A stretch of 64,000 bases of DNA from Nanobdellota archaeon (GTDB lineage: Archaea; Nanobdellota; Nanobdellia; Woesearchaeales; GW2011-AR4). Under the pieces are notes generated by a model that saw only the letters and a program-made list of their open reading frames with translations, ran no database searches and was not told where the DNA came from. The position numbers and the translations under genes were made by a program. Of the stretch, positions 6,555 through 64,000 are shown in pieces; the first letter of the stretch is position 1; every line of letters starts with the position of its first letter. The stretch is taken from positions 394 to 64,393 of the forward strand of contig JADFLA010000002.1 in NCBI GenBank assembly GCA_022564635.1. Direction: 5' to 3'.

Positions 6555-8207
6555 CTAACCTTTTAGATAAGGTTTGTTAATACTATTATCGTGGTATAAA
6601 ATCCTCATTACACCAATTATCTTTTGCTGTAATGCTTCTCTGTTTGCAGTAGCATAGTCAACTACTGCTTTGTTTGTATCCAGTAATTTCGCAATTTCAT
6701 TTTTTTTAAATTTAAGGTCCTCTGCTTCATAAATTTGGGAAGCTAATCTATAGATTAAATCTTTATTACCAAATCTAGCTATATACCGTTTTATTCTGGG
6801 TCTGTTTCCTATTTTTCTAAAAATTCCAGCAACAACATTATTTGGGATTTCAAGGAAATAACCAATATCTGGTACTGTCATTTCTAAACTATATCCTCTA
6901 CGAATCTGTTCTTTCTTTTCTTCAGTAGGTATATTTCTCTGTTTGCTATTATACATTGATTCTACCCCTACAGCGCGGAATATTCTTCCTAAGGTTGTTA
7001 AGTGCATGTTTAAACCATCTGCTATAACTGTCAGCTCTATTTTTTCTCTATAATTTGCCCCTTTTTCTAATCTCTCAAATGCAGTAATTAATGTTCCAAA
7101 TTGTACACCTGATTTTTTGCTTCCTGATTCCATATATTCAAATGCTTTTTGGAAAGCCCAGGATTCTTTCTTAACTAATTCATCAACTCTTGTTTTTAAA
7201 ATGTAAATTATGTTTTCCAAGGATTGTTTTTTACCTTGCTCTGCCTCTTCCTTCTTTTCAACCCATTTCGGATTTTGATCTGAATGGATAATATATTGTC
7301 TAATTCTTTCTCTTGATATTTTAATCGATTTATTAAGTTCGACTCGCATTTCTTGAAGGGACATCCCCCTTTCAATTAAATTATCGATTTCAGGCCTTCT
7401 TTTGGTTCCAGGTCTTACTGGTAATCCAATTCCAGGCAAATCAATTTCTCCTTCCTTAATTAGAGTATAAGTTAAGGATTCTGTTAATCGTACTTCTATA
7501 GCAATAGATTTTATAGATTTATATCCGTCATCTTTTGCTTGTTTAATTGCGTTTATTTTTTCCTCTCTTGTTCTGTAATCTATTCCAGGCAACTTAATGT
7601 CAGCTTCAATAGCATGCTCACGAATAGTTTTTACTTTTAATCCAAGATATTTTGCAACAGCATCTTCTGAATCAGCACCATCTGCAATTGCTTGAAGAAT
7701 AGCTCTCGATCTCTTTTTTTTATGTCTTTCAAGTTTTGAAAATGTAATCCCAGCTTCCGGAGCATATCTATTAACTTTATCTCTTGATAATCCAGTTTTT
7801 TCAATAACATCATCTATAATATCCCCACCCACATATGCTTCACGAATTGCATTAACATATCTATCTCTCATCCTATAATTTCCTCTAGATGTTTTAACGC
7901 CATTTTGCGTTTGATTACCACCATTATCACCATCTACTGTTAGTATTGGAATAGATTCTGGAATATCTATTTGGTAATAGGACATAAACATATCAATAAT
8001 TATTGGGGATATACCTAATTCACTAGCAATTTCTGCTAATCTTTGTTTTCCGGAAGAAATAGAGTTTTGAATACTTCTTTTAGTAGATTCTTCAATATTA
8101 TTTACTGTGGATATATCTAATTTTAATTCTTCGACTATAGCAGAGTCATCATAACTAGACATTCGCATTTCCAAAATCCTAGTTATTCTATCTTCCAAAA
8201 ATGACAT
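6555..8207 (-). CDS. orphan protein built from repeated HTH-like modules (550 aa)
   Basis: At least four ~45-aa units of the form AI(R/L/K)xA..G...(HTH)...I.LPGI, e.g. RSRAILQAIADGADSEDAVAKYLGLKVKTIREHAIEADIKLPGI; TATA ttatatata ~28 nt upstream. Confidence 0.55.
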   Translation of the reverse strand: MSFLEDRITRILEMRMSSYDDSAIVEELKLDISTVNNIEESTKRSIQNSISSGKQRLAEIASELGISPIIIDMFMSYYQIDIPESIPILTVDGDNGGNQTQNGVKTSRGNYRMRDRYVNAIREAYVGGDIIDDVIEKTGLSRDKVNRYAPEAGITFSKLERHKKKRSRAILQAIADGADSEDAVAKYLGLKVKTIREHAIEADIKLPGIDYRTREEKINAIKQAKDDGYKSIKSIAIEVRLTESLTYTLIKEGEIDLPGIGLPVRPGTKRRPEIDNLIERGMSLQEMRVELNKSIKISRERIRQYIIHSDQNPKWVEKKEEAEQGKKQSLENIIYILKTRVDELVKKESWAFQKAFEYMESGSKKSGVQFGTLITAFERLEKGANYREKIELTVIADGLNMHLTTLGRIFRAVGVESMYNSKQRNIPTEEKKEQIRRGYSLEMTVPDIGYFLEIPNNVVAGIFRKIGNRPRIKRYIARFGNKDLIYRLASQIYEAEDLKFKKNEIAKLLDTNKAVVDYATANREALQQKIIGVMRILYHDNSINKPYLKG

Positions 8208-8947: not shown

Positions 8948-9724
8948 ATGATAGAAACAAAGATAGTCCAGAAATTTGGTAATAGCAGTCATGTAGTCTT
9001 GCCAAAAGAGTATATAGGCAAAAGAATAAGATTCATAGCAGAACCCAAAACTTTTGAAGATATAAAATCTGAAATATTAGGAATTCTAAAACCTAATTTA
9101 GAGAAGACCATAGGGGTATATTTATACGGTTCCTATGCCAGAAATGAGCAAACTATTAACTCAGATATAGATATATTGACAGTAACAAGCAGCAAATTAA
9201 AAATAATTGATAAAATTGATAACTATACAATTATCTCTACTACTATAGAAGAACTTGAGGATACATTAAGGAGTAATGCTGTTTTAATTTTACCGATAAT
9301 AAAAGAAGCAAAAACCATTATTAATCCAAATTTATTAAATAAATACAAGAATTATAAATTTACAAATAAAAACACTAAATCTTTTATTAACAGTTGTATC
9401 GAGGTATTAAAATTAAACAAAAAAGGTTTAGAATTAGATTTTGAAATAGGAAGCCTTGTTTATTCTTTAATATTAAGAATAAGGGGCTTGTTAATTATAA
9501 AACTTATGTTGAACAATAAGTTATACTCAAAATCATTATTATTTAATCATTTAGAAAATAATAATATATCAAAAAATAAAATTAGAGAATTGTATAAAAT
9601 TTACACTGAAGAAAGAAATAACGATAAAGTAAAAAAAAGTGATATTATAACAAAAACCGATATAGAAAAATTATTAGTCATTGCTCATAAATTATTAAAA
9701 GAGGTAAAAATGTTATTTAAATGA
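8948..9724 (+). CDS. AbrB/SpoVT-like domain fused to a nucleotidyltransferase domain
   Basis: N-terminal KIVQKFGNSSHVVLPKEY (AbrB swapped-hairpin signature), then GVYLYGSYARNEQTINSDIDILTV NTase motif; start moved to ATG 8948. Confidence 0.65.
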   Translation: MIETKIVQKFGNSSHVVLPKEYIGKRIRFIAEPKTFEDIKSEILGILKPNLEKTIGVYLYGSYARNEQTINSDIDILTVTSSKLKIIDKIDNYTIISTTIEELEDTLRSNAVLILPIIKEAKTIINPNLLNKYKNYKFTNKNTKSFINSCIEVLKLNKKGLELDFEIGSLVYSLILRIRGLLIIKLMLNNKLYSKSLLFNHLENNNISKNKIRELYKIYTEERNNDKVKKSDIITKTDIEKLLVIAHKLLKEVKMLFK

Positions 9725-9936
9725 GCAAAAAGAAATATAAAAAGGGTATTGAAAGTCTAAAAAAAGAAATTGGTATACATAGAAATATTAAGCTGCAAAA
9801 GGCTTTGGAAGAAGATAATATTGAATTAGCTGGTTATTATCAAAAAGAGATTAAAAGATTAGAAAGCCAATTAATGGAAAAAGAGGAAAAATTATTGCCT
9901 AGGAGTAAGAGGTTAGAGATTAAAAAGAAGAAATAA
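9721..9936 (+). CDS. small coiled-coil protein coupled to the NTase gene
   Basis: ATGA start/stop overlap with the upstream gene; 71 aa, K/E-rich helix. Confidence 0.4.
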   Translation: MSKKKYKKGIESLKKEIGIHRNIKLQKALEEDNIELAGYYQKEIKRLESQLMEKEEKLLPRSKRLEIKKKK

Positions 9937-9982
9937 AAATATTTTTAAAGTAGTTGATTATTTTAAACTTGTATCACATAAA

Positions 9983-10165
9983 ATGGTATTGGCATTAGAA
10001 AATATAGTAAGAACTGCAAAACTCGAACCATTATTTACTACAATTATGGGTATTATGTCTTTGGAAGTGGGAGCGGTAGTAGGAAAAACGCTATCAGATG
10101 GAATAGCTCCTATTGATGTCCCAATTTTATTAGCTTCTGGTTTCGTTGCAAGTGCTGTTGCATAG
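9983..10165 (+). CDS. hypothetical small hydrophobic protein (possibly truncated)
   Basis: 60-aa ORF ending at TAG; the frame stays open a further 42 codons to TAA at 10293. Confidence 0.3.
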   Translation: MVLALENIVRTAKLEPLFTTIMGIMSLEVGAVVGKTLSDGIAPIDVPILLASGFVASAVA

Positions 10166-10348
10166 GGTATATCTAAAATAAAAGAAGAATATGTAAATAT
10201 TAGAGAGCTTATTGAAGAATATGGTTTTCACAATACATTTATTGATAATAAAACAAATCGTAGGTACGCAAAAGTTTATGCTCAGGAACATTAATTTAAT
10301 GGATGATTATAATTCTGCATTAGAAAGATATGTTGCTTAATTAAAAAA

Positions 10349-13300
10349 TCACTTCCTCAACAAAATAAACCCTGCTCCAATTACAAATATCGCAGTTCCT
10401 ATAAATATAACAATAAATATTGCTAACAAAACATTATATCCTTCTGTTTCTGTAAAAGGAATTGCAGCAGGAGGTACTGGTTTTTTCTCTAATATAATTT
10501 TTGGCTTTATTATTTTTACCTTTGGCTTTTCTTTCTTAACTTCCTCTTTAACCTTCTTGACTAACTCACATTCCTCAACATCTAGGTTAACTGTATCTGT
10601 CTCGCTTAATTTACCATCATAATAGGTATTGATGGTTATAGGATATGTTCCAGGTAAAACATCGGTACTTATGGACTCTGTAAATAGTTTTGTAAACCTA
10701 TTATCATCAGTGCCTTCATCAAGCTCTATTCCTGTTACTAATGAATTTATACTTAAATCACTATTCATAACTTCAAGAGTTACATCATCTTCATCTTCTG
10801 AGCCTGTGTTTATTATTTCTGTATTAATTGAAATTGTTCTTTGGCATTTTATTGTTGATGGTGTTAATGCAGACCTTATTATTCTTATTTCATGGTTTTC
10901 TTTCTCTACTTCAAGCTCCAGATTAAATTCAATCTCATGAGTTGTTCCATTTTCATCTTCGCCTTCTACCTCAATTAAAACATCAAAAGTATCTTCTTCA
11001 ACTTCTAAAGGAATCTCAAACTCTATCTTTTCTCTCTCATCCTTTCCTGCCTTTAAGTCAAATTCTTTTGCATCTTCATCTAAATCATCACCATCATCAA
11101 TATCAAGAATAGTCACAATAATTTCAATATCTTCAATTTCCAAATCTTCATCATCTGTAAATAAGTTCTCTACCTCTATACTAAATATAACTTTAGAGCC
11201 TGGTTTTGCTTCCTTACTTATTTTATCCCCATCTATAAGGTTTTTATCAGTTTTCCCGTCTACTTTTACATCAAGATCACTTATTTGTAATTTTGGGCCT
11301 TTAGTAACTGTTATATTATATGATTGGGTTTCTGTTAAGCTTCCATCGCTTACATTTACGGTTACATTATTTACACCTACTTGAGATAATATTGGTGTCC
11401 ATGAAATAACTCCAGTTGAAGAATCTATGCTCATTCCGCTCGGACTTGTTAATAAGGAGAAAGTTAAAACATCTCCATCAGGATCTGTTGCATCAACATC
11501 ATAAGTATATTTTTGTCTTTCTATAGCTCTTGTTACTGGTGTTGATGTTACCACAGGAGCACCATTTGTTCCATTTATTTGCGTAAAGTATGTGGAAAAG
11601 TGCGGAACATTAAATTTCAAAACTCCATTAACAGTATCATATGTTACATTTGTACATACAGTATCTGGACATACAGTCGCACCTGTAGTGCTTTCAAACC
11701 CCGATGTATTAAATATCAAAGGAGTTTTTGTAAAGTTAAGCCCTTTCATAATTAGCGCTGCAGATCCATTTAATCCAGGGTAAGTTACAGTATCAACAGA
11801 TATGAAACCTTTACTTATGTTAATTGCATCTTCTAAGTTAACCACTCCACTAAAGTTTAATGTTTCATTAGTATAGCCAATGCTTCCAAAAGTGCTTTGA
11901 TTAACAACCACATCAGTTGCATTTTGCCTCTCAGTCTCATTTAGACTTAAAACAGGACTTGTAAGTTCATCTGAAACTATTTCTGTAGTCACTATTAAAA
12001 CCCATTCATTTCTTGCTTCTGCTCCTGCAGTATCATTCACAATAACTGTTATGTTATAAATTCCTCCATCTAAATTAGTAACAGTAACATTTGAAGAATT
12101 AGTTGCAATTTTAGTAGTTGTATTTCTAAACCATGTAGCATTTACATAATCTCCTGCATCAACATCAGTAAATGTAATATCAAATCTTTGGCTTCCAACA
12201 GATGATGCAATAGTCTTATTTTTGGTTGGAGAGAATGACGTTATTGTGGGTGCATCATTAGTATTAGTTACAGTTATTGTTATTGTCTCTGAACCATTCT
12301 TTGTTGAATCTTTTGTTACAAAAGTTATTGTGTTGCTGCCAACCTCATCATTTGTTGGTGTCCATGAAACCGTTGCTAGTGAATTGTTTGCATCTTTTGT
12401 AAATGCAATTGGGTTAGTATTAGATGTAAAATTAGACGTAAAAGTCAAGCTGTTATTATCAGGATCATTAACAGTTATATTAAACTTCAGAGTAGAATCT
12501 TCAGTCGCAGCCTTATTTCCTATAGGGTCTAATACTGGTTCTCTGTTTGTATTTGTAACTGTAACCTGCCATTCCTGCTCTGCTGAATTTGAATTATTAT
12601 CTTGTACTTGCAGTTTTATTACATAATTTCCTGCTGCTGTAAAGTTATTTGTAAGATTAAAAGTAAAGTTCTGTACATTACTCGCATTTACATTGTCTAC
12701 AAACCATGTAAAGTTTATTGGATCATTATCTGGATCTGAAGCATTAATAGTAAACGATAATGTCTTATTTTCAGCAACAGCTGGACTGGTGTCTGTACTG
12801 GAACCGTCTATTGTATTATTCCAAGTCCATTTATTAATTACAGGATCATTATCTCTAATCATTGTAAAATTAAATGTTGCTGATTTTGAGGAATTCAATA
12901 AACTATCATTAGCCAAAACATTCCAGAAATAGGTTGTATTAGAATCAAGATTAGTTAATTGTAAACTTGTTGAGGTTGTTGTTGCATTAAATGTTATATT
13001 ATTGCTATTATCGGAGAAAAATACATGATATGTTATCTGATCATTTTCAGCATCTATTGAATTATCCCATTTCAATGTAGCTTTCCCTGCAGAAGATGTA
13101 ACATTAGAACCACTTTCTGGGCTTATTAAATTTGGTGTGGTAGGAGCGTCATTAACATTAGCAACAATAATTGTTATATTATTGCTTGAACTTGTCTGGT
13201 TGCTTGTATCAATTGCAGTAAATATAATGAAATTTATTCCATTAAAGTTCAAATCAGGAGTAAAATTTGCAATTTGAGTTGCATTATTTATATGCACAGT

Positions 13301-37540: not shown

Positions 37541-37655
37541 CGTTCCCTCACACCAGTGTATTGGGGTGTGTCTATGACACCCCCCCCCGAGACTACTTGA
37601 GATGATGCAGTCTCGGGGCATCGAAGATGCCCCTATACACTGTTTTACGGGAACG
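37541..37655. ncRNA. GC-rich multi-stem structured RNA candidate of unknown class
   Basis: Nested complementarity: CGTTCCC/GGGAACG, CAGTGTAT/ATACACTG, GGGGTGT/ACACCCC, CCGAGACT/AGTCTCGG, GGGGCATC/GATGCCCC; strand not resolved (the plus reading gives a GAUGAUG K-loop-like apex). Confidence 0.45.
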
Positions 37656-39536: not shown

Positions 39537-39941
39537 TTACAAGCCTAAACTCTCATCAATATCTTCTGCCATGCTTCTTAAATCCTCGCAAGTCCTTCTC
39601 AGATCCTTTTCAACCTCGTCTATTAACTCTCTTAAGTTATCAACCCTTAAGATATAGCCTCTAGGCGCTTGTACCACAATACCAGATTCAAGTAATTTAT
39701 GGATATGATGCACAACAGTTCCTCTACTTAAACCTAACCTATAAGCCAACTCATCGCTAGACAAAGGTATTCCTCTTTTTGCTGTCTTAACCAGCTCTAT
39801 AAAAACTCTAAAGCAACTTTTGTCCTTATCCCTTAAATTAAACAATCCTAAAGAACTGCCTAACCATTGCAGTTCCTGATTTACATTCTTTTGCACAGGC
39901 TTTCTGATGTTCATTATTGTTATTCGGTGTATGTATCTCAT
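39537..39941 (-). CDS. ArsR-like winged-helix transcriptional regulator
   Basis: LSSDELAYRLGLSRGTVVHHIHKLLESGIVV HTH segment. Confidence 0.6.
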   Translation of the reverse strand: MRYIHRITIMNIRKPVQKNVNQELQWLGSSLGLFNLRDKDKSCFRVFIELVKTAKRGIPLSSDELAYRLGLSRGTVVHHIHKLLESGIVVQAPRGYILRVDNLRELIDEVEKDLRRTCEDLRSMAEDIDESLGL

Positions 39942-39967: not shown

Positions 39968-40804
39968 TTAATGAAATTTAAAGTTGTATTTCTTCAAAAC
40001 CTTTGAAACAGTAGTAGCAGTACGTAATGTTCTTCTGGCAGTTTCCGCCTTATTTCCAGTTTCTGCAAAAACTGATAATATTTCACCTTCATCTTGCTCT
40101 ACAGGAAAAATAGGGCCATTAATATGTCCATGCCTTTCCCAACACAAGACATACCTTTCAACAGTTTCAACTCTATGATTCATTCTCGTTGCAATTATAC
40201 GAATTAACCTTCTTTTTTCTTGGAATTCGATTGGTTTTTCATAATTACGAATCAATTGTGAATAATCATCAATTATCCTTTGACTTTCATCATATGAAAG
40301 ATATCCTATATGAGCCTGTCGACTTCCATCAAATCTTAGTCTCGCACCACTACGCGGCAATGGCTCCCGACCATGCTCCCTCAATTTTTGAGTTAAACTA
40401 TGGTGTTGGTAATTCGTTCTTCTCATAACTTCTGAAACATTTCCACCTGCTTCTTCATGAATTGATAATATAGTAGTTAAGTTCCATTCTAAACCCAATC
40501 CATATTTAATTTCACTTGTGGTTAATCTTGGCAAGGATAAATCATCAAAAATATTCCTTAAGGATATTTGAGCAATACCAAGTTCCTTTGCTAATTTGGT
40601 AGTGCCCCTATACCCTAGTTGATTTGATAAAAACAAGTAATCTATTAGTGTAAGTCCTGTATCTTTTACAGATCGATAATACTCTTTATTTTCATCTTTT
40701 GTGTATTTCCTAAGATTTTCTATTACTTTTGTGTGTACTTTACTTTCTAAACAATATATGTCATAACCAAGGAAATTTACAAGCATATCTTCAGCAACTC
40801 TCAT
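39968..40804 (-). CDS. orphan multi-HTH protein (278 aa)
   Basis: Three HTH-like units (TTKLAKELGIAQISLRNIFDDLSLPRL; NVSEVMRRTNYQHHSLTQKLREHG; NKAETARRTLRTATTVSKVLKKY); same style as 6555-8207. Confidence 0.55.
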   Translation of the reverse strand: MRVAEDMLVNFLGYDIYCLESKVHTKVIENLRKYTKDENKEYYRSVKDTGLTLIDYLFLSNQLGYRGTTKLAKELGIAQISLRNIFDDLSLPRLTTSEIKYGLGLEWNLTTILSIHEEAGGNVSEVMRRTNYQHHSLTQKLREHGREPLPRSGARLRFDGSRQAHIGYLSYDESQRIIDDYSQLIRNYEKPIEFQEKRRLIRIIATRMNHRVETVERYVLCWERHGHINGPIFPVEQDEGEILSVFAETGNKAETARRTLRTATTVSKVLKKYNFKFH

Positions 40805-40865
40805 GTTTAACCAAGTTAAAAACCTTGCTTTATTTAAATCTTTTGCTCATTTATATACTAAAACA

Positions 40866-40881
40866 TAGAAAAGTTTATATA
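40866..40881 (+). promoter_or_regulatory. BRE/TATA promoter driving the small hairpin/micro-ORF unit
   Basis: tagaaaagtttatata; back-to-back with the minus-strand promoter gcaaaagatttaaata (40831-40846) of 39968-40804. Confidence 0.45.
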
Positions 40882-40937
40882 CTAGTTGATATTACCATAG
40901 TTTCGTTGATTTAAAGTCAACAGAAAATAATAAAACC

Positions 40938-40973
40938 AGGAGGCAGCGGAAAATCGAGATTTTCTGGCCTCCT
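40938..40973 (+). other. long imperfect hairpin in the leader of the micro-ORF
   Basis: AGGAGGC..CGGAAAATC-ga-GATTTTCTG.GCCTCCT; its 3' arm CCTCC can alternatively pair with the GGAGG SD at 40984-40988. Confidence 0.45.
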
Positions 40974-40995
40974 CGTAAAACTCGGAGGTACTAAA

Positions 40996-41028
40996 ATGAA
41001 AGGCGGAGAAGGTTGTAACATCTGTTAA
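40996..41028 (+). CDS. candidate 10-codon micro-ORF (MKGGEGCNIC) with a strong SD
   Basis: GGAGGT 6 nt upstream of the ATG; a second copy at the window end reads (M)KGGEGCGSC with a synonymous Cys codon change; followed by an oligo-T tract. Confidence 0.25.
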   Translation: MKGGEGCNIC

Positions 41029-41111
41029 TTCAGCTTAATAATTAAAATTTTATTTTTTTATTTTTTAATTATTACATTTATTTAATGGAAATTCATTATC
41101 GAAAATAAAAA

Positions 41112-41633
41112 ATGACAAAAGAAGAAAAAAAACAGAATAAAGAAAAAAAGTCCGAAGAAAAATCAAAGGACAAAAAACCAACAGAAAAGGAGGTTATTGC
41201 AGAACTAACAGAAACTCTACAAAGAACTCAAGCAGAGTTTGAAAACTATAAAAAAAGAGTTGACAAAGAAAAACAAGAGTTTGTAAAATATGCAAAAGCA
41301 GAATTAATACAAAAATTATTGCCAACAATAGATACTTTTGAAATCGCATTAAAATCCACTAAAGACAACGAAAAATTCGTAAAAGGCATGGATATGGTTT
41401 ATGCACAATTAATGTCACTTTTACATACAGAAGGCCTAAAACCGATAGAAGCTTTTGGAAAAAAGTTTGATCCCTATCTTCATGAAGTTATGCTGAAAGA
41501 AAAATCAGATAAAGATGAAGGTATTGTTTTGGAGGAGCTGCAAAAAGGTTACATGCTCAATGATAAAGTTTTGAGGCATAGTAAAGTCAAAGTTAGTGAA
41601 AAGGACAATAAAAAAGAATCCAATAAAAAATAA
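41112..41633 (+). CDS. grpE: nucleotide exchange factor GrpE
   Basis: LQRTQAEFENYKKR and C-terminal FDPYLHEV...GY....VLRHSKV motifs. Confidence 0.9.
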   Translation: MTKEEKKQNKEKKSEEKSKDKKPTEKEVIAELTETLQRTQAEFENYKKRVDKEKQEFVKYAKAELIQKLLPTIDTFEIALKSTKDNEKFVKGMDMVYAQLMSLLHTEGLKPIEAFGKKFDPYLHEVMLKEKSDKDEGIVLEELQKGYMLNDKVLRHSKVKVSEKDNKKESNKK

Positions 41634-41790: not shown

Positions 41791-42318
41791 TTGGAAAAAA
41801 AGAGATTAGCAAAAAATACTCCAGTAAATGAGGTTTTGAAGCTAACCAATCCATGCAAATGCGAAGCATGCACTGTAGGATGTAGGCATGGTAGTGGTTT
41901 TTTAGTTGAAGAAGACATTCCAAGGATTGCAAAATTCATGAACATTTCAGAGGAAGTTTTGAAAAAAGAGTTTTTGGAAGAAGTTGAGAAATTCAACACA
42001 AAGCGTTTTAGACCAAGAATATTAAGAAAAGACAAACCTTATGGAAAATGCATCTTTTTCGATGAAGAGATTGGATGCAAGGTCCATGAAGTAAAACCAT
42101 TGGAATGCAAAATTTCGATGGGATGTAAAGATTATGGTGAACAATTAAGCTTGTGGTTCATGCTCAATCATTTTGTAAACAAGGATGATGCAGAAAGCAT
42201 AAGGCAATTTGCATCTTACCTAAAAACCGATGGTAAAACACTGGAAGGATCTGAATTAAAAGATTTAGTTCCTGACAAAGAAAAGTTAAAGAAAATATTG
42301 AAATTTGAAATATTATAA
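41791..42318 (+). CDS. YkgJ-type cysteine-cluster (zinc/iron-chelating) protein
   Basis: CKCEACTVGC cluster plus later CIFF..GCKVHEVKPLEC; TTG start preceded by AGGTG. Confidence 0.5.
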   Translation: MEKKRLAKNTPVNEVLKLTNPCKCEACTVGCRHGSGFLVEEDIPRIAKFMNISEEVLKKEFLEEVEKFNTKRFRPRILRKDKPYGKCIFFDEEIGCKVHEVKPLECKISMGCKDYGEQLSLWFMLNHFVNKDDAESIRQFASYLKTDGKTLEGSELKDLVPDKEKLKKILKFEIL

Positions 42319-42434: not shown

Positions 42435-44339
42435 ATGGCTGAAAAAACAAAAACAAAGAAAGAAAAGATAATTGGAATAGATTTAGGTACAAGTAATAGT
42501 GCTGCTTCTGTACTGCAAGCAGGCAAACCAACAATAATTCCTAGTGCAGAAGGTACAACTGCTTATGGAAAAGCATTTCCAAGTGTAGTTGCATTTACAA
42601 AAGATGGACAAATGTTGGTAGGAGAACCAGCTCGTAGACAAGCTGTCTCAAACCCACAAGGAACAATCCTTGCTGCAAAAAGAAAGATGGGAACAAAATT
42701 TGAGTATCAAATTAATGGAAAAAAATATACTCCACAACAAATCTCAGCATTTATTCTGCAAAAAATAAAGAAGGATGCAGAAGAGTTTATAGGAGAACCA
42801 ATAAAGAAAGCAGTCATAACAGTACCTGCTTATTTTGATGATAATCAAAGGCAAGCAACAAAAGATGCTGGAACTATAGCAGGATTAGAGGTTGTAAGAT
42901 TGGTAAATGAGCCAACAGCTGCTTCCATGGCTTATGGCCTTGATAAAATGGACAGGGAAATAAAAATTCTTGTTTTTGATTTTGGTGGCGGAACTCTAGA
43001 TGTCACAATAATGGATTTATCTGAAGGAGTCTTTGAAGTCAAAGCCACCAGTGGAGATACCCAACTGGGTGGAACAGACATGGATGAAGCCTTGATGAAT
43101 TTTATAATTGAGGATTTCAAGAAAAAAGAAGGCATTGACTTAGGTGAAGATGATACAGCTATGCAGCGTTTAAGGGAAGCTGCAGAAAAGGCTAAGATAG
43201 AGTTGTCTACGACAATGGAAACAGAAATTAATGTACCTTTCATTACTTCTCAAAATGATAGTCCAAAACATTTGACTATGAAGCTGGCTAGATCCAAATT
43301 AGAGCAGCTAGTGGAACCAATTATTCAGAAATGTAAGCATCCAATGGAACAAGCTATGAAAGATTCTAAATTAACAGTTAATGAAATTAACAAAATAATC
43401 CTAGTTGGTGGTCCAACAAGAATGCCTATTGTAAGAAAGTTTGTAGAAGATATTGTTGGAAAGAAAGCAGAGCGTGGAGTAGATCCAATGGAGTGTGTTG
43501 CACAAGGTGCAGCTATACAAGCAGGAGTCTTAGCTGGAGAAGTTAAAGACATCCTATTGCTTGATGTAACCCCATTAACTTTAGGAATAGAAACTCTAGG
43601 TGGTGTTTTCACAAATCTAATAGAAAGAAACACAACTATCCCAAGTAAGAAAAGCCAAATTTTTTCGACAGCCGCAGATAATCAACCAGCTGTTACTATT
43701 AGGGTTGGCCAGGGCGAAAGACCGATGTTTAATGACAACAAAGCTCTTGGTCAATTTGATCTGGTTGGAATACCTCCAACTCCTAGAGGAATTCCACAGA
43801 TAGAGGTTACCTTTGATATAGATGCAAACGGTATACTGCATGTAACTGCAAAGGATTTAGGTACTAAAAAGGAGCAGAGCATTAAGATTACTGCCCCGAA
43901 TAAGTTAAGTGATGAGGAAGTTGAAAAGATGAAAAAAGAAGCAGAGACTCACGCAGAAGAAGACAAGAAAAGAAAAGAAGAAGTTGAGACAATAAATCAA
44001 GCTGATAGTTTAGTTTACTCAACTGAAAAACTTTCCAAAGAGTTTAAAGGAAAAGTTGACAAGAAAGAGTTAGAGACAGTAAAAGGAAAAATCATGGAGT
44101 TAAAAGAATTACTAAAGCCGGAAAAGAAAGATGTAGCAGCAATAAAAACCAAAATGGATGAAGTCAATAAACTAGTCCAGAAAATGTCAACAGAGATGTA
44201 TCAAAAAGTTGCGCAAGAGCAAGCTAAGAAGCAACAGCAAGGTGCACAAGCAGGAGCTAAAGACAAAGGGAAAAAAGATGAAAAAGTAGTTGATGCAGAG
44301 TATAAAGTAGAGGGTGAAGATAAAAAGAAAAAGAAATAA
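42435..44339 (+). CDS. dnaK: molecular chaperone DnaK (Hsp70)
   Basis: [27 protein letters not shown] signatures; GGGTGA SD upstream. Confidence 0.95.
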
Positions 44340-63118: not shown

Positions 63119-63197
63119 TATCATCACCTTTAAGATACTTTAATATTTCATTTCTAGGACAACAATGTTTTTAAATTTATCGTTATTTTGTCTTTAT

Positions 63198-63920
63198 ATG
63201 GCGAAGATATTAATTAATAAGCATGATAAATTTTTGGTTAAGGACTTAAATAATGATTTTCATACAAAACATGGTTATTTTAAGAAACAAGATTTGAAGA
63301 AAACAAGTTCTAAAATAAAATCAAATACAAAAAAGGAATTTACAGTTTTTGATCCATATTTTATTGATTTATACAGAAAAATAAAGAGAGATGCGCAGAT
63401 AATTCCATTAAAAGATATTGGTTTAATTGTTTCAGAAACTGGAATCAATAAAAATAGTAAAGTTGTTGATGCTGGTTCTGGTTCTGGAGCATTATGTTGT
63501 TTTTTGGCAAATATTGTAAAAGAGGTTATTACATATGAAATAAGGGAAGATTTCATTAAAATTGTAAAAAAGAACATTGATTTTCTAAAATTAAAAAATA
63601 TAAAAATAAAAAATAAGAACGTTTATGATGGTATTTCTGAGAAAAATATTGATTTAATTGTATTAGATGTGCCAGAGCCATGGAAAGCAATAAATGCTGC
63701 TAAAAAAGCATTAAAAATAGGTGGTTTTTTGGTTTCTTACAGCCCAACAATACCACAAACTCAGGATTTCATTAATAAGGTAAATATAAATAAAAATTTT
63801 GTACATGTAAAGACTTCTGAGATTATTGAAAGAGAATGGGAAGTTGATGGAAGGAAAGTAAGACCTAGAAGCCAGGCTATAGGGCATTCTGGATTTATTA
63901 GTTTTGTTAGAAGAATTTAG
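63198..63920 (+). CDS. trmI: tRNA (adenine-N1)-methyltransferase TrmI (Gcd14 family)
   Basis: VVDAGSGSGAL SAM motif, LDVPEPW, GHSGFISFVRR C-terminus; start moved to internal ATG 63198. Confidence 0.8.
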   Translation: MAKILINKHDKFLVKDLNNDFHTKHGYFKKQDLKKTSSKIKSNTKKEFTVFDPYFIDLYRKIKRDAQIIPLKDIGLIVSETGINKNSKVVDAGSGSGALCCFLANIVKEVITYEIREDFIKIVKKNIDFLKLKNIKIKNKNVYDGISEKNIDLIVLDVPEPWKAINAAKKALKIGGFLVSYSPTIPQTQDFINKVNINKNFVHVKTSEIIEREWEVDGRKVRPRSQAIGHSGFISFVRRI

Positions 63921-63960
63921 TTAAAAAAAAGAAAAAAATAAAAATTTTTATTAATTATTT

Positions 63961-64000
63961 AAGCTTAATTAACAGCTTCCGCAACCTTCTCCGCCTTTCA
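63961..64000 (-). repeat. second copy (truncated by the window edge) of the micro-ORF unit at 40997-41036
   Basis: The reverse complement tgaaaggcggagaaggttgcggaagctgttaattaagctt matches 40997 onward except for a 6-nt block and one further position; an oligo-T tract follows on the minus strand. Confidence 0.6.

Follow-up and report, generated by a model that had tools for sequence, protein, structure and literature searches.

Upstream of grpE, in the window studied here (the whole 64,000-nucleotide stretch of contig JADFLA010000002.1 from a Woesearchaeota-type archaeon), lies a micro-open reading frame (micro-ORF) of 10 codons preceded by a hairpin. On balance, we favour the view that this micro-ORF, here called copy 1, is a real gene that is translated into a Gly/Cys micropeptide of 10 residues. 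It is one member of a family, its product would most likely act in trans through two thiols and the hairpin in front of it is a generic element. We infer translation, stress induction and the chemistry of the peptide from sequence context. The source genome is metagenome-assembled (1.43 Mb, 31.7% G+C, 87% complete) and was compared with 70 genomes of the same family, all of them metagenome-assembled too.

The case for a gene comes from these relatives. About 24 related micro-ORFs of 10-15 codons are present in 20 of the 70 family genomes, spread over six genera. All have the same layout: GGAGG lies 5-10 nt 5' of the ATG, the body is rich in Gly, the C-terminus carries CxC or CxxC, and a T run follows the stop. 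The pattern Shine-Dalgarno (SD)-ATG-N(6-30)-TGY GGN TGY has 54 matches in the family genomes versus 6 for the reversed control, and approximately 20 of the 54 are frames of 10-15 codons with the stop 0-3 codons past the Cys pair. An SD-led frame ending in CxxC-TAA was found in two congeners. One type of peptide is basic, with MAKGKGKGCGC in five genomes and the variants MTKAKGKGCGC, MAEGKGKGCGC, MARGKGKGCGC, MAKGRGKGCGC, MSGKSKAKGGGCGCG, MEPKGKGNCGC and MEQGKGNCGC. Another belongs to genus g11 (MGEGCGCGSCK and MGKGKGCGGCGCGQ). The window's own genus contributes MKGGEGCGCE, MKNGEGCGCGGC, MTGGEGDGCGGC, MAGKGKGGCGC, MEGRGKGGCGCGG, MGGDDDCGCGGCGK and MTIGDGCGCG. Three of these are orthologues of copy 1 at the same site, MKGGEGCGCE in G002, MKNGEGCGCGGC in G011 and MAGKGKGGCGC in G008. 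The source genome has a further micro-ORF, MTDGDHCETC, on another contig (C13) beside gatA, and MTIGDGCGCG of G001 likewise sits beside gatA.

The exact sequence MKGGEGCxxC, sought in 60 relatives, has no match beyond the window's own two copies. Therefore, the family is defined by composition and the Cys pair, and not by sequence. Its only constant features are the Gly-rich body and the C-terminal Cys pair (CxC, usually CGC, or CxxC). Across genera the nucleotide sequence diverges and the peptide pattern is retained. Outside the family, the CGC-stop micro-ORF pattern was found in 2 of 139 genomes of the same order, only one of them in frame. To judge from these genomes, the micro-ORF family is restricted to one Woesearchaeota-type family.

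Substitutions between members are patterned like those of a protein-coding gene. In nine orthologues of the MAKGKGKGCGC type, a small sample compared by plain counts rather than a formal dN/dS model, the variable sites are 2 of 10, 3 of 10 and 7 of 10 at codon positions 1, 2 and 3, and pairwise codon differences amount to 95 synonymous versus 39 non-synonymous. The stop in these nine is TAA, TAG or TGA, and its position is unchanged. Micro-ORFs that differ in length do so by whole codons. This is the pattern that would be expected for a translated frame under purifying selection. An earlier first-pass annotation of this DNA had offered a micropeptide gene as one reading and had pointed out that copies with a broken frame, or lacking the SD or ATG, would count against it. 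No related copy has lost its SD, ATG, frame or Cys pair, and the substitutions are codon-like, so the comparison with relatives favours coding.

The features at the copy 1 locus, all on the forward strand, are as follows.

40850-40860 and 40874-40884, forward: two TTTATATACTA TATA-type boxes within the grpE-operon promoter region (40850-40884)
40866-40881, forward: B recognition element (BRE)/TATA box TAGAAAAGTTTATATA, read from the sequence
40885-40896, forward: part 1 of a putative operator, GTTGATATTACC, just 3' of the TATA box
40905-40921, forward: part 2 of the putative operator, palindrome GTTGATTTAAAGTCAAC, conserved before grpE
40939-40983, forward: leader cassette (hairpin plus linker UCGUAAAACUC), matched over its full length by covariance model R1 (64.9 bits)
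40984-40988, forward: SD of copy 1, GGAGG, 7 nt 5' of the ATG
40996-41028, forward: micro-ORF copy 1, MKGGEGCNIC plus TAA, 33 nt, with same-site orthologues in relatives
41029-41066, forward: 3' trailer (TTCAGCTTAATAATT...) in common with copy 2 by alignment of the two, plus oligo-T tract (41048-41066)
41077-41085, forward: second TATA-like box, TTTATTTAA, 27 nt before the grpE ATG (41112)
41112-41633, forward: grpE, first gene of the cluster grpE, CxxCxxCC protein gene, dnaK
41791-42318, forward: CxxCxxCC protein gene (Pfam match PF03692), between grpE and dnaK
42435-44339, forward: dnaK (HSP70 Pfam match)

The BRE/TATA box, hairpin, SD, 10-codon CxxC ORF, T-rich tract and second TATA box before grpE all lie where the first-pass annotation had put them. 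The codons of copy 1 are ATG AAA GGC GGA GAA GGT TGT AAC ATC TGT TAA. As regards a terminator, the window shows a weak stem and the oligo-T only, and the oligo-T tract is likely to be an archaeal termination signal. Beyond it, the TTTATTTAA box may be an internal promoter for a near-leaderless grpE, and a box resembling it occupies the equivalent position in G011. Rfam had no match in the whole window at the gathering score, and none between 40700 and 41200 at E<=10, leaving no riboswitch, small RNA (sRNA) or leader family for either the unit or the cassette. ARAGORN found no tRNA across the window (1-64000). A link to a palindromic repeat at 37541-37655 was rejected, the sequences being unrelated to the unit.

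Does the promoter belong to the micro-ORF? Orthologues of grpE are present in 53 of 61 family genomes surveyed, and the sequences upstream of grpE were collected from 30 family genomes. Across genera these grpE loci share a block made up of TTTATATACTA, GTTGATATTACC, approximately 9 nt and the palindrome GTTGAyTTaAaGTCAAC. In the source genome the exact TTTATATACTA 11-mer occurs 17 times and the operator palindrome is unique. The block is found in other genera with or without a micro-ORF, and in most genomes grpE starts 10-30 nt past the palindrome. A micro-ORF with its own T tract intervenes before grpE only in G000, G002, G011 and G008, where it lies behind the operator, and in G007, where it lies between hsp20 and grpE. 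Since the same block directly drives grpE in relatives without the micro-ORF, 40866-40881 is best seen as the promoter of the heat-shock operon, with the micro-ORF a lineage-specific insertion behind it. The operator is kept before grpE in at least 15 family genomes, where it adjoins a divergent gene for a 134-aa winged helix-turn-helix (wHTH) regulator of the HTH_20/ArsR type. This makes the 134-aa protein a candidate archaeal Hsp70-operon repressor, for which the pre-grpE block would be the binding site. In the window, the wHTH gene (39537-39941) is separated from the grpE promoter by a 278-aa gene without a Pfam match (39968-40804, reverse strand). In relatives regulator gene and promoter are directly adjacent, so this 278-aa gene has the look of an insertion rather than of the local regulator.

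The second copy that the first-pass annotation had noticed, differing mainly in codons 8-9 with both Cys codons and the stop in frame, is indeed there. It lies approximately 23 kb from copy 1, at the end of the window.

63165-63920, convergent with copy 2: GCD14-type tRNA methyltransferase gene (Pfam match PF08704)
63921-63968, reverse: trailer and oligo-T tract of copy 2, read from the sequence
63969-64001, reverse: micro-ORF copy 2, MKGGEGCGSC plus TAA; the A of its ATG, at 64001, is one base past the window and was read from the contig

Copy 2 has its own TTTATATACTA box, a GGAGG SD, the ORF, the trailer and the oligo-T, and the hairpin is wholly absent. An alignment of the two copies from SD to terminator has 101 columns, 80 of them identical. 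Within the ORF they differ at codons 8-9 and by one synonymous TGT/TGC change. They share a 20-mer that occurs in only two places in the 1.43-Mb genome, the chance expectation in the window being 0.01. Micro-ORFs also occupy the site equivalent to that of copy 2 in G009 (MTGGEGDGCGGC, with a cassette), in G004 (MGGDDDCGCGGCGK) and, in another genus, in G022 (MGKGKGCGGCGCGQ). All four of these loci are convergent with the methyltransferase gene and have no co-directional downstream gene. The proposal of a self-contained transcription unit thus fits copy 2, which has its own box, SD, ORF and oligo-T, but not copy 1, whose promoter is shared with grpE in relatives.

The hairpin turns out to be a separate matter. 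In copy 1 its outer stem pairs GGAGGC (40939-40944) with GCCUCC (40967-40972), its inner stem pairs GGAAAAUC with GAUUUUC, and an AGC/UG internal loop lies between them. This is the minimum-free-energy fold, and for the 171-nt leader the folding energy is -37.1 kcal/mol (z = -2.75 versus shuffles). The order of elements in what we call the leader cassette is a GGAGGY decoy SD, an internal loop, a variable stem-loop, an RCCUCC anti-SD, an A-rich linker, the true SD GGAGG and the start codon. The pattern GGAGGCAGC-N-GCCTCC picked out eight copies with differing inner stems in seven genomes. Covariance model R1 was confined to the outer helix and linker, because MAFFT misaligns the inner stems, and these were judged sequence by sequence. 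R1 has matches in 55 of the 70 family genomes and in all 12 genera that the scan spans, many of them full-length with E-values of 1e-7 to 1e-20; the source genome has eight matches, six of them full-length. The 3' half of the cassette is absent from 393 genomes of other families of the order.

One two-tier hairpin is common to all thirty aligned copies, with linkers of the UCGUAAAAACUC type and GGAGG behind it. Pairing in the outer helix reaches 98.9% and includes compensatory changes; two pairs vary on both sides (e.g., C-G 15 versus U-A 13), and the covariation score of this helix was reached by 0 of 500 shuffles. Of 29 copies, 28 have an inner helix of at least 5 bp, whose 5' arm takes 23 different forms (mean z of -2.26 versus shuffled cores). 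Two copies, from different genera, have UGAGG as the true SD, and in both the decoy arm reads UGAGGC and the anti-SD arm finishes in ...CUCA, a joint change of all three elements. The genes 3' of the cassette encode DnaK, ATP synthase c/K, ribosomal stalk protein P1, L7Ae, RpoN, RpoD, EF-1alpha and TatA, as well as small membrane peptides ending MVGGC and zinc-ribbon proteins. These are mostly abundant housekeeping products, and the cassette is a generic leader of highly expressed genes. This is at odds with the suggestion that the hairpin is a dedicated riboregulator of the unit or of Hsp70. The cassette is always in the sense orientation, immediately 5' of the true SD. It is missing at the orthologous G011 site and at copy 2, it is present before the copy 2 orthologue in G009, and each time the difference between presence and absence is bounded by a GGAGG direct repeat. 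The idea of a repeat element is right for the hairpin but not for the rest of the unit.

What might the cassette do? The predicted probability that the SD is unpaired between 15 and 65 C is 0.80-0.85 for the window copy and 0.63-0.92 for four other copies. An RNA thermometer of the ROSE or fourU type, or an SD switch, was rejected because in folding at five temperatures from 15 to 65 C the decoy-SD/anti-SD stem is closed and the SD mostly unpaired. The alternative pairing of CCUCC with the SD that had been noted for copy 1 is possible, but it is predicted to be a minor state over this range, and it is the predicted minimum-free-energy fold only in tandem copies in G025. We read the cassette as a leader that is likely to serve mRNA stability or translation efficiency, and it may also be a fail-safe: without the 5' arm, the SD would become masked. 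Two species have a micro-ORF with the cassette, which shows that these genomes equip the micro-ORF like the genes of abundantly expressed proteins. The cassette is a so far undescribed structured element of the 5' untranslated region, present across the family on highly expressed archaeal genes.

Some variants of the cassette deserve mention. The tandem pair in G025 (contig C8) is arranged so that the SD of the first cassette is the decoy arm of the second, and it stands before a 70-aa membrane peptide. On contig C14 of the source genome (5940-6034), a further palindromic element is lodged in the loop of the cassette that precedes TatA. On contig C24 (12448-12477, reverse strand) there is a partial inner hairpin, GGCAGCGGAAAATCAAGATTTTCCAGCC, without the GGAGG/CCUCC stem; CCTTCAGG direct repeats flank it and no start codon follows. 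A group of 65-70-aa proteins, often cassette-led and with no Pfam match, begins MNRNVIIV..., has a hydrophobic helix and a Ser/Gly-rich stretch, and ends ...LPxMVGGC.

The genes around the micro-ORFs offer a clue to function. A YruB-type glutaredoxin-like (Grx-like) gene (PF00462; TIGR02196 at 93.7 bits, cut-off 88.55) stands directly downstream of ten micro-ORFs, at a distance of 35-200 nt, and every one of the ten is of the basic type. Directly after the Grx-like gene in 8 of the 10 comes a thioredoxin reductase (TrxR) gene, for which TIGR01292 is the top match at 326.7 bits, below its cut-off of 343. In G001 a micro-ORF is 3' of a TrxR gene. Five micro-ORFs precede grpE or follow hsp20. PadR-controlled clusters of genus g12 run from a divergent Cys-bearing PadR gene (PF03551) through the micro-ORF, a leader cassette, a gene for a 102-108-aa CC-rich protein and a gene for a 165-aa HExxH-like protein to a nitroreductase gene, and in several g12 genomes the 165-aa HExxH-like gene abuts grpE. 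The divergent PadR-like proteins bear N-terminal Cys-Cys pairs. Elsewhere in g12 the slot after the PadR gene is filled by 46-51-aa proteins that start ME(E/T)CG(S)CGC and continue with a helix. The sequence of this family, from genera g12 and g5, is ME(E/T)CG(S)CGC...SFFTKEEKxEMLKEYKESLEKEAKGVAERIKQLEKE, and one member has weak, sub-threshold similarity to DUF5320. In four examined loci these proteins follow a Cys-bearing PadR gene, and in two of the four they precede the HExxH-like and nitroreductase genes. A 212-aa HFX_2341_N/wHTH protein adjoins micro-ORFs in two genera. Going by these annotations, the recurring theme of the neighbourhoods is genes of thiol redox and proteotoxic stress.

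The 102-108-aa proteins, which are encoded between the micro-ORF and the 165-aa gene in G029 and G083, have a metallothionein-like CC-rich N-terminus (MGECCEESKCCSGKESCCESSCSDSCC...), a helical C-terminus and no Pfam match.

How, then, might the peptide work? Inserted between the heat-shock operator/promoter and grpE, the micro-ORF would be expressed when the Hsp70 operon is derepressed, and the peptide would act in trans through its dithiol. One option is that it is redox-active and recycled by the neighbouring Grx-like protein and TrxR. The other is that it serves as a thiol ligand for metals or Fe-S clusters under proteotoxic or thiol stress. On present evidence these two roles are inseparable. 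Action in trans is suggested because four stand-alone loci have no downstream gene and because most relatives drive grpE without a micro-ORF. The order of a tiny first cistron, a leaky terminator-like hairpin and then the enzymes would suit a product required in larger amounts than the enzymes that recycle it. A more specific proposal, which we regard as less likely than not, is that the peptide is a ribosomally encoded low-molecular-weight dithiol, made in excess from the first cistron and kept reduced by the co-encoded Grx-like protein and TrxR, that serves as a glutathione surrogate and minimal protein disulfide isomerase (PDI)-like catalyst under heat or thiol stress.

Several observations do not sit easily with a trans-acting thiol peptide. 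The two peptides of the window end in CxxC and are neutral to acidic, whereas the best-conserved group ends in CGC and is basic. A single biochemical function common to acidic CxxC and basic CGC peptides is thus an assumption. A length of 10 residues is beyond the reach of structure or homology tools. The micro-ORFs of the Grx/TrxR group end with the codons GGC UGC, which double as the 5' arm of a terminator-like hairpin (GGCUGC-UAAUU-GCAGCC-U tract). Given this overlap, part of the 'GC' conservation could be at the RNA level, with a cis role possible. Furthermore, the source genome's own Grx-like gene has no upstream micro-ORF, and a tblastn search of its 87%-complete assembly with the first 90 residues of a relative's TrxR gave no match.

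What if the peptide is only a by-product? In this scenario, which we regard as the main rival of a trans-acting peptide although we judge it rather unlikely, the micro-ORF is an upstream ORF encoding a cis-acting leader peptide. Its translation, perhaps with stalling at Gly/Cys codons, would govern terminator read-through into stress genes (grpE-dnaK; grx-trxB). Many members do stand at the 5' end of an operon, 35-200 nt from the next gene. In the Grx group the last sense codons lie in the arm of the terminator-like hairpin, where a terminating ribosome could cover them, and there is little space for a separate promoter. However, an attenuator should have a downstream gene in all members, and four loci, copy 2 included, have no co-directional one. 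In most relatives grpE is controlled from the same operator without a micro-ORF, no antiterminator alternative was seen, and residues other than Cys (the KGKGKG stretch) are also under purifying selection. The arrangement of tiny gene, leaky terminator and enzymes would suit a product required in excess of the enzymes as well. A sub-variant of the trans-acting peptide that we favour would confine it to metal buffering, as a metallothionein- or phytochelatin-like ligand (Zn, Cu, Cd, Fe-S) with no redox catalysis. Pointing this way are the neighbours with Cys clusters, namely the PF03692 CxxCxxCC protein between grpE and dnaK, the 102-108-aa CC-rich proteins and the divergent PadR-like proteins with their N-terminal Cys-Cys pairs, together with a four-Cys CPxCG-type micro-ORF, MDGETCPSCGKDKCEC, in the source genome. 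Nevertheless, the tightest and best-conserved linkage is with Grx-like and TrxR genes, not with metal transporters, and with two Cys per peptide a metal site would require oligomers. A role limited to metals is improbable.

Two further explanations dispense with a free dithiol peptide altogether. The unit is short and duplicated, with a repeat-type hairpin and a conserved 3' trailer, as might be expected of a non-coding sRNA or a selfish repeat in which the open frame is incidental. It is very improbable that it is one of these, as Rfam has no match, the substitutions are codon-patterned, three stops interchange in place and the SD-ATG spacing is kept throughout. Moreover, the hairpin is dispensable (absent in copy 2 and G011) and the peptide pattern outlasts nucleotide divergence. 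A precursor of a ribosomally synthesized and post-translationally modified peptide (RiPP), comparable to the heptapeptide precursor of microcin C or to methanobactin, seems the most far-fetched of all. A very small gene followed by a signal resembling a leaky terminator would suit it, and a Cys-rich core generally recalls methanobactin precursors. However, there is no leader region for enzyme recognition and no maturation enzyme is to be seen beside any copy. Pfam and NCBIfam assign the neighbours to chaperone, Grx/TrxR, PadR, nitroreductase and GCD14 tRNA methyltransferase families.

A trans-acting thiol peptide has parallels among known systems, both designed and natural. The best-studied minimal mimic of PDI is CGC: for H-Cys-Gly-Cys-NH2 the reduction potential is -0.167 V, and yeast with a pdi1 deletion is rescued by genetically encoded CXC peptides (bioRxiv 10.64898/2026.01.27.701630). 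These peptides of the Raines laboratory are like those of the archaeal family in being short and unfolded with the CXC dithiol as the sole functional element, and CGC is the commonest ending in the family. Unlike them, the archaeal genes are natural, cytoplasmic and known from sequence, whereas the CXC peptides are man-made and targeted to the yeast endoplasmic reticulum; the copies in the window are also CxxC. CxxC peptides, too, are redox-active and metal-binding. Among natural low-molecular-weight thiols are glutathione, haloarchaeal gamma-Glu-Cys, phytochelatins and bacillithiol/mycothiol. They are similarly small compounds of Glu/Gly/Cys type, and the enzymes that recycle them, glutaredoxin-type proteins and flavoprotein disulfide reductases, are like those encoded next to the micro-ORFs. 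To our knowledge, all are made enzymatically and never ribosomally. No low-molecular-weight thiol system for DPANN archaea was found described in the literature.

As for cis-acting systems, the trpL and hisL leader peptides, and RiPP precursor genes with leaky terminators, likewise place a very short SD-led ORF first in an operon, and a terminator-like hairpin overlaps the end of this ORF or follows it. The archaeal micro-ORFs differ from the trpL/hisL attenuators in having stand-alone copies, no visible antiterminator and conservation of the whole peptide. We know of no case in which leader-peptide attenuation has been established in archaea. The cassette, for its part, resembles the STAB-SD of Bacillus cryIIIA and the 5' stem-loop of ompA in having an extra SD-like sequence and a stable stem 5' of the true SD on highly expressed genes. 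It resembles repetitive extragenic palindromes (REP) and palindromes like those of miniature inverted-repeat transposable elements (MITE) in being multi-copy, dispersed and flanked by a direct repeat (GGAGG). Unlike either, it has a decoy SD paired to an internal anti-SD, is always in the sense orientation, has an inner stem that covaries and belongs to no Rfam family.

The closest archaeal analogues are the C(P)XCG zinc-finger micro-proteins of haloarchaea, described for Brz (PMC2253796) and in the Haloferax small proteome (PMC10117724). They too are small, defined by Cys pairs, often encoded beside their target genes and missed by gene callers. However, they have approximately 40-70 aa and two to four CPXCG motifs (four Cys), whereas the DPANN peptides have 10-15 aa, a single Cys pair and no Pro. 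The window's peptides, with 10 aa, a single CxxC and no Pro, therefore fall outside a class whose members, 40-70 aa long, have four Cys in two or more C(P)XCG motifs. Only the unrelated micro-ORF MDGETCPSCGKDKCEC of the source genome approaches it. Apart from these micro-proteins and the designed CXC peptides, the literature yielded no description of natural Gly/Cys micropeptide genes or of the leader cassette.

If they are made and active, the peptides would rank with the smallest functional gene products known from archaea, and would be the first natural gene-encoded mini-thiol working with a glutaredoxin/thioredoxin reductase pair. Should they act as a glutathione surrogate, they would be a natural counterpart of the designed CXC catalysts. 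This bears on how genome-reduced DPANN archaea handle redox and proteotoxic stress, on enzyme-like thiol chemistry by short peptides in vivo and on the coding capacity lost to the length cut-offs of gene callers. The cassette, with its built-in decoy-SD/anti-SD/SD logic, is of interest independently of the peptide.

Contig C45 of the source genome, outside the window, holds two further items. At approximately 6983-7050 (forward strand) is the 16-codon, SD-led micro-ORF MDGETCPSCGKDKCEC, of CPxCG type with four Cys and unrelated to the family. It lies directly 3' of a 379-aa gene with a CPLC motif, a paralogue of which is 1.2 kb from the MTDGDHCETC micro-ORF on C13. Two thioredoxin-fold genes (CINC and WCPPC motifs) stand approximately 1.5 kb upstream of MDGETCPSCGKDKCEC. 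At 9689-12366 the source genome's Grx-like gene follows two genes that by eye resemble those of ergothioneine synthesis, one for an EgtD-like methyltransferase and one EgtB-like.

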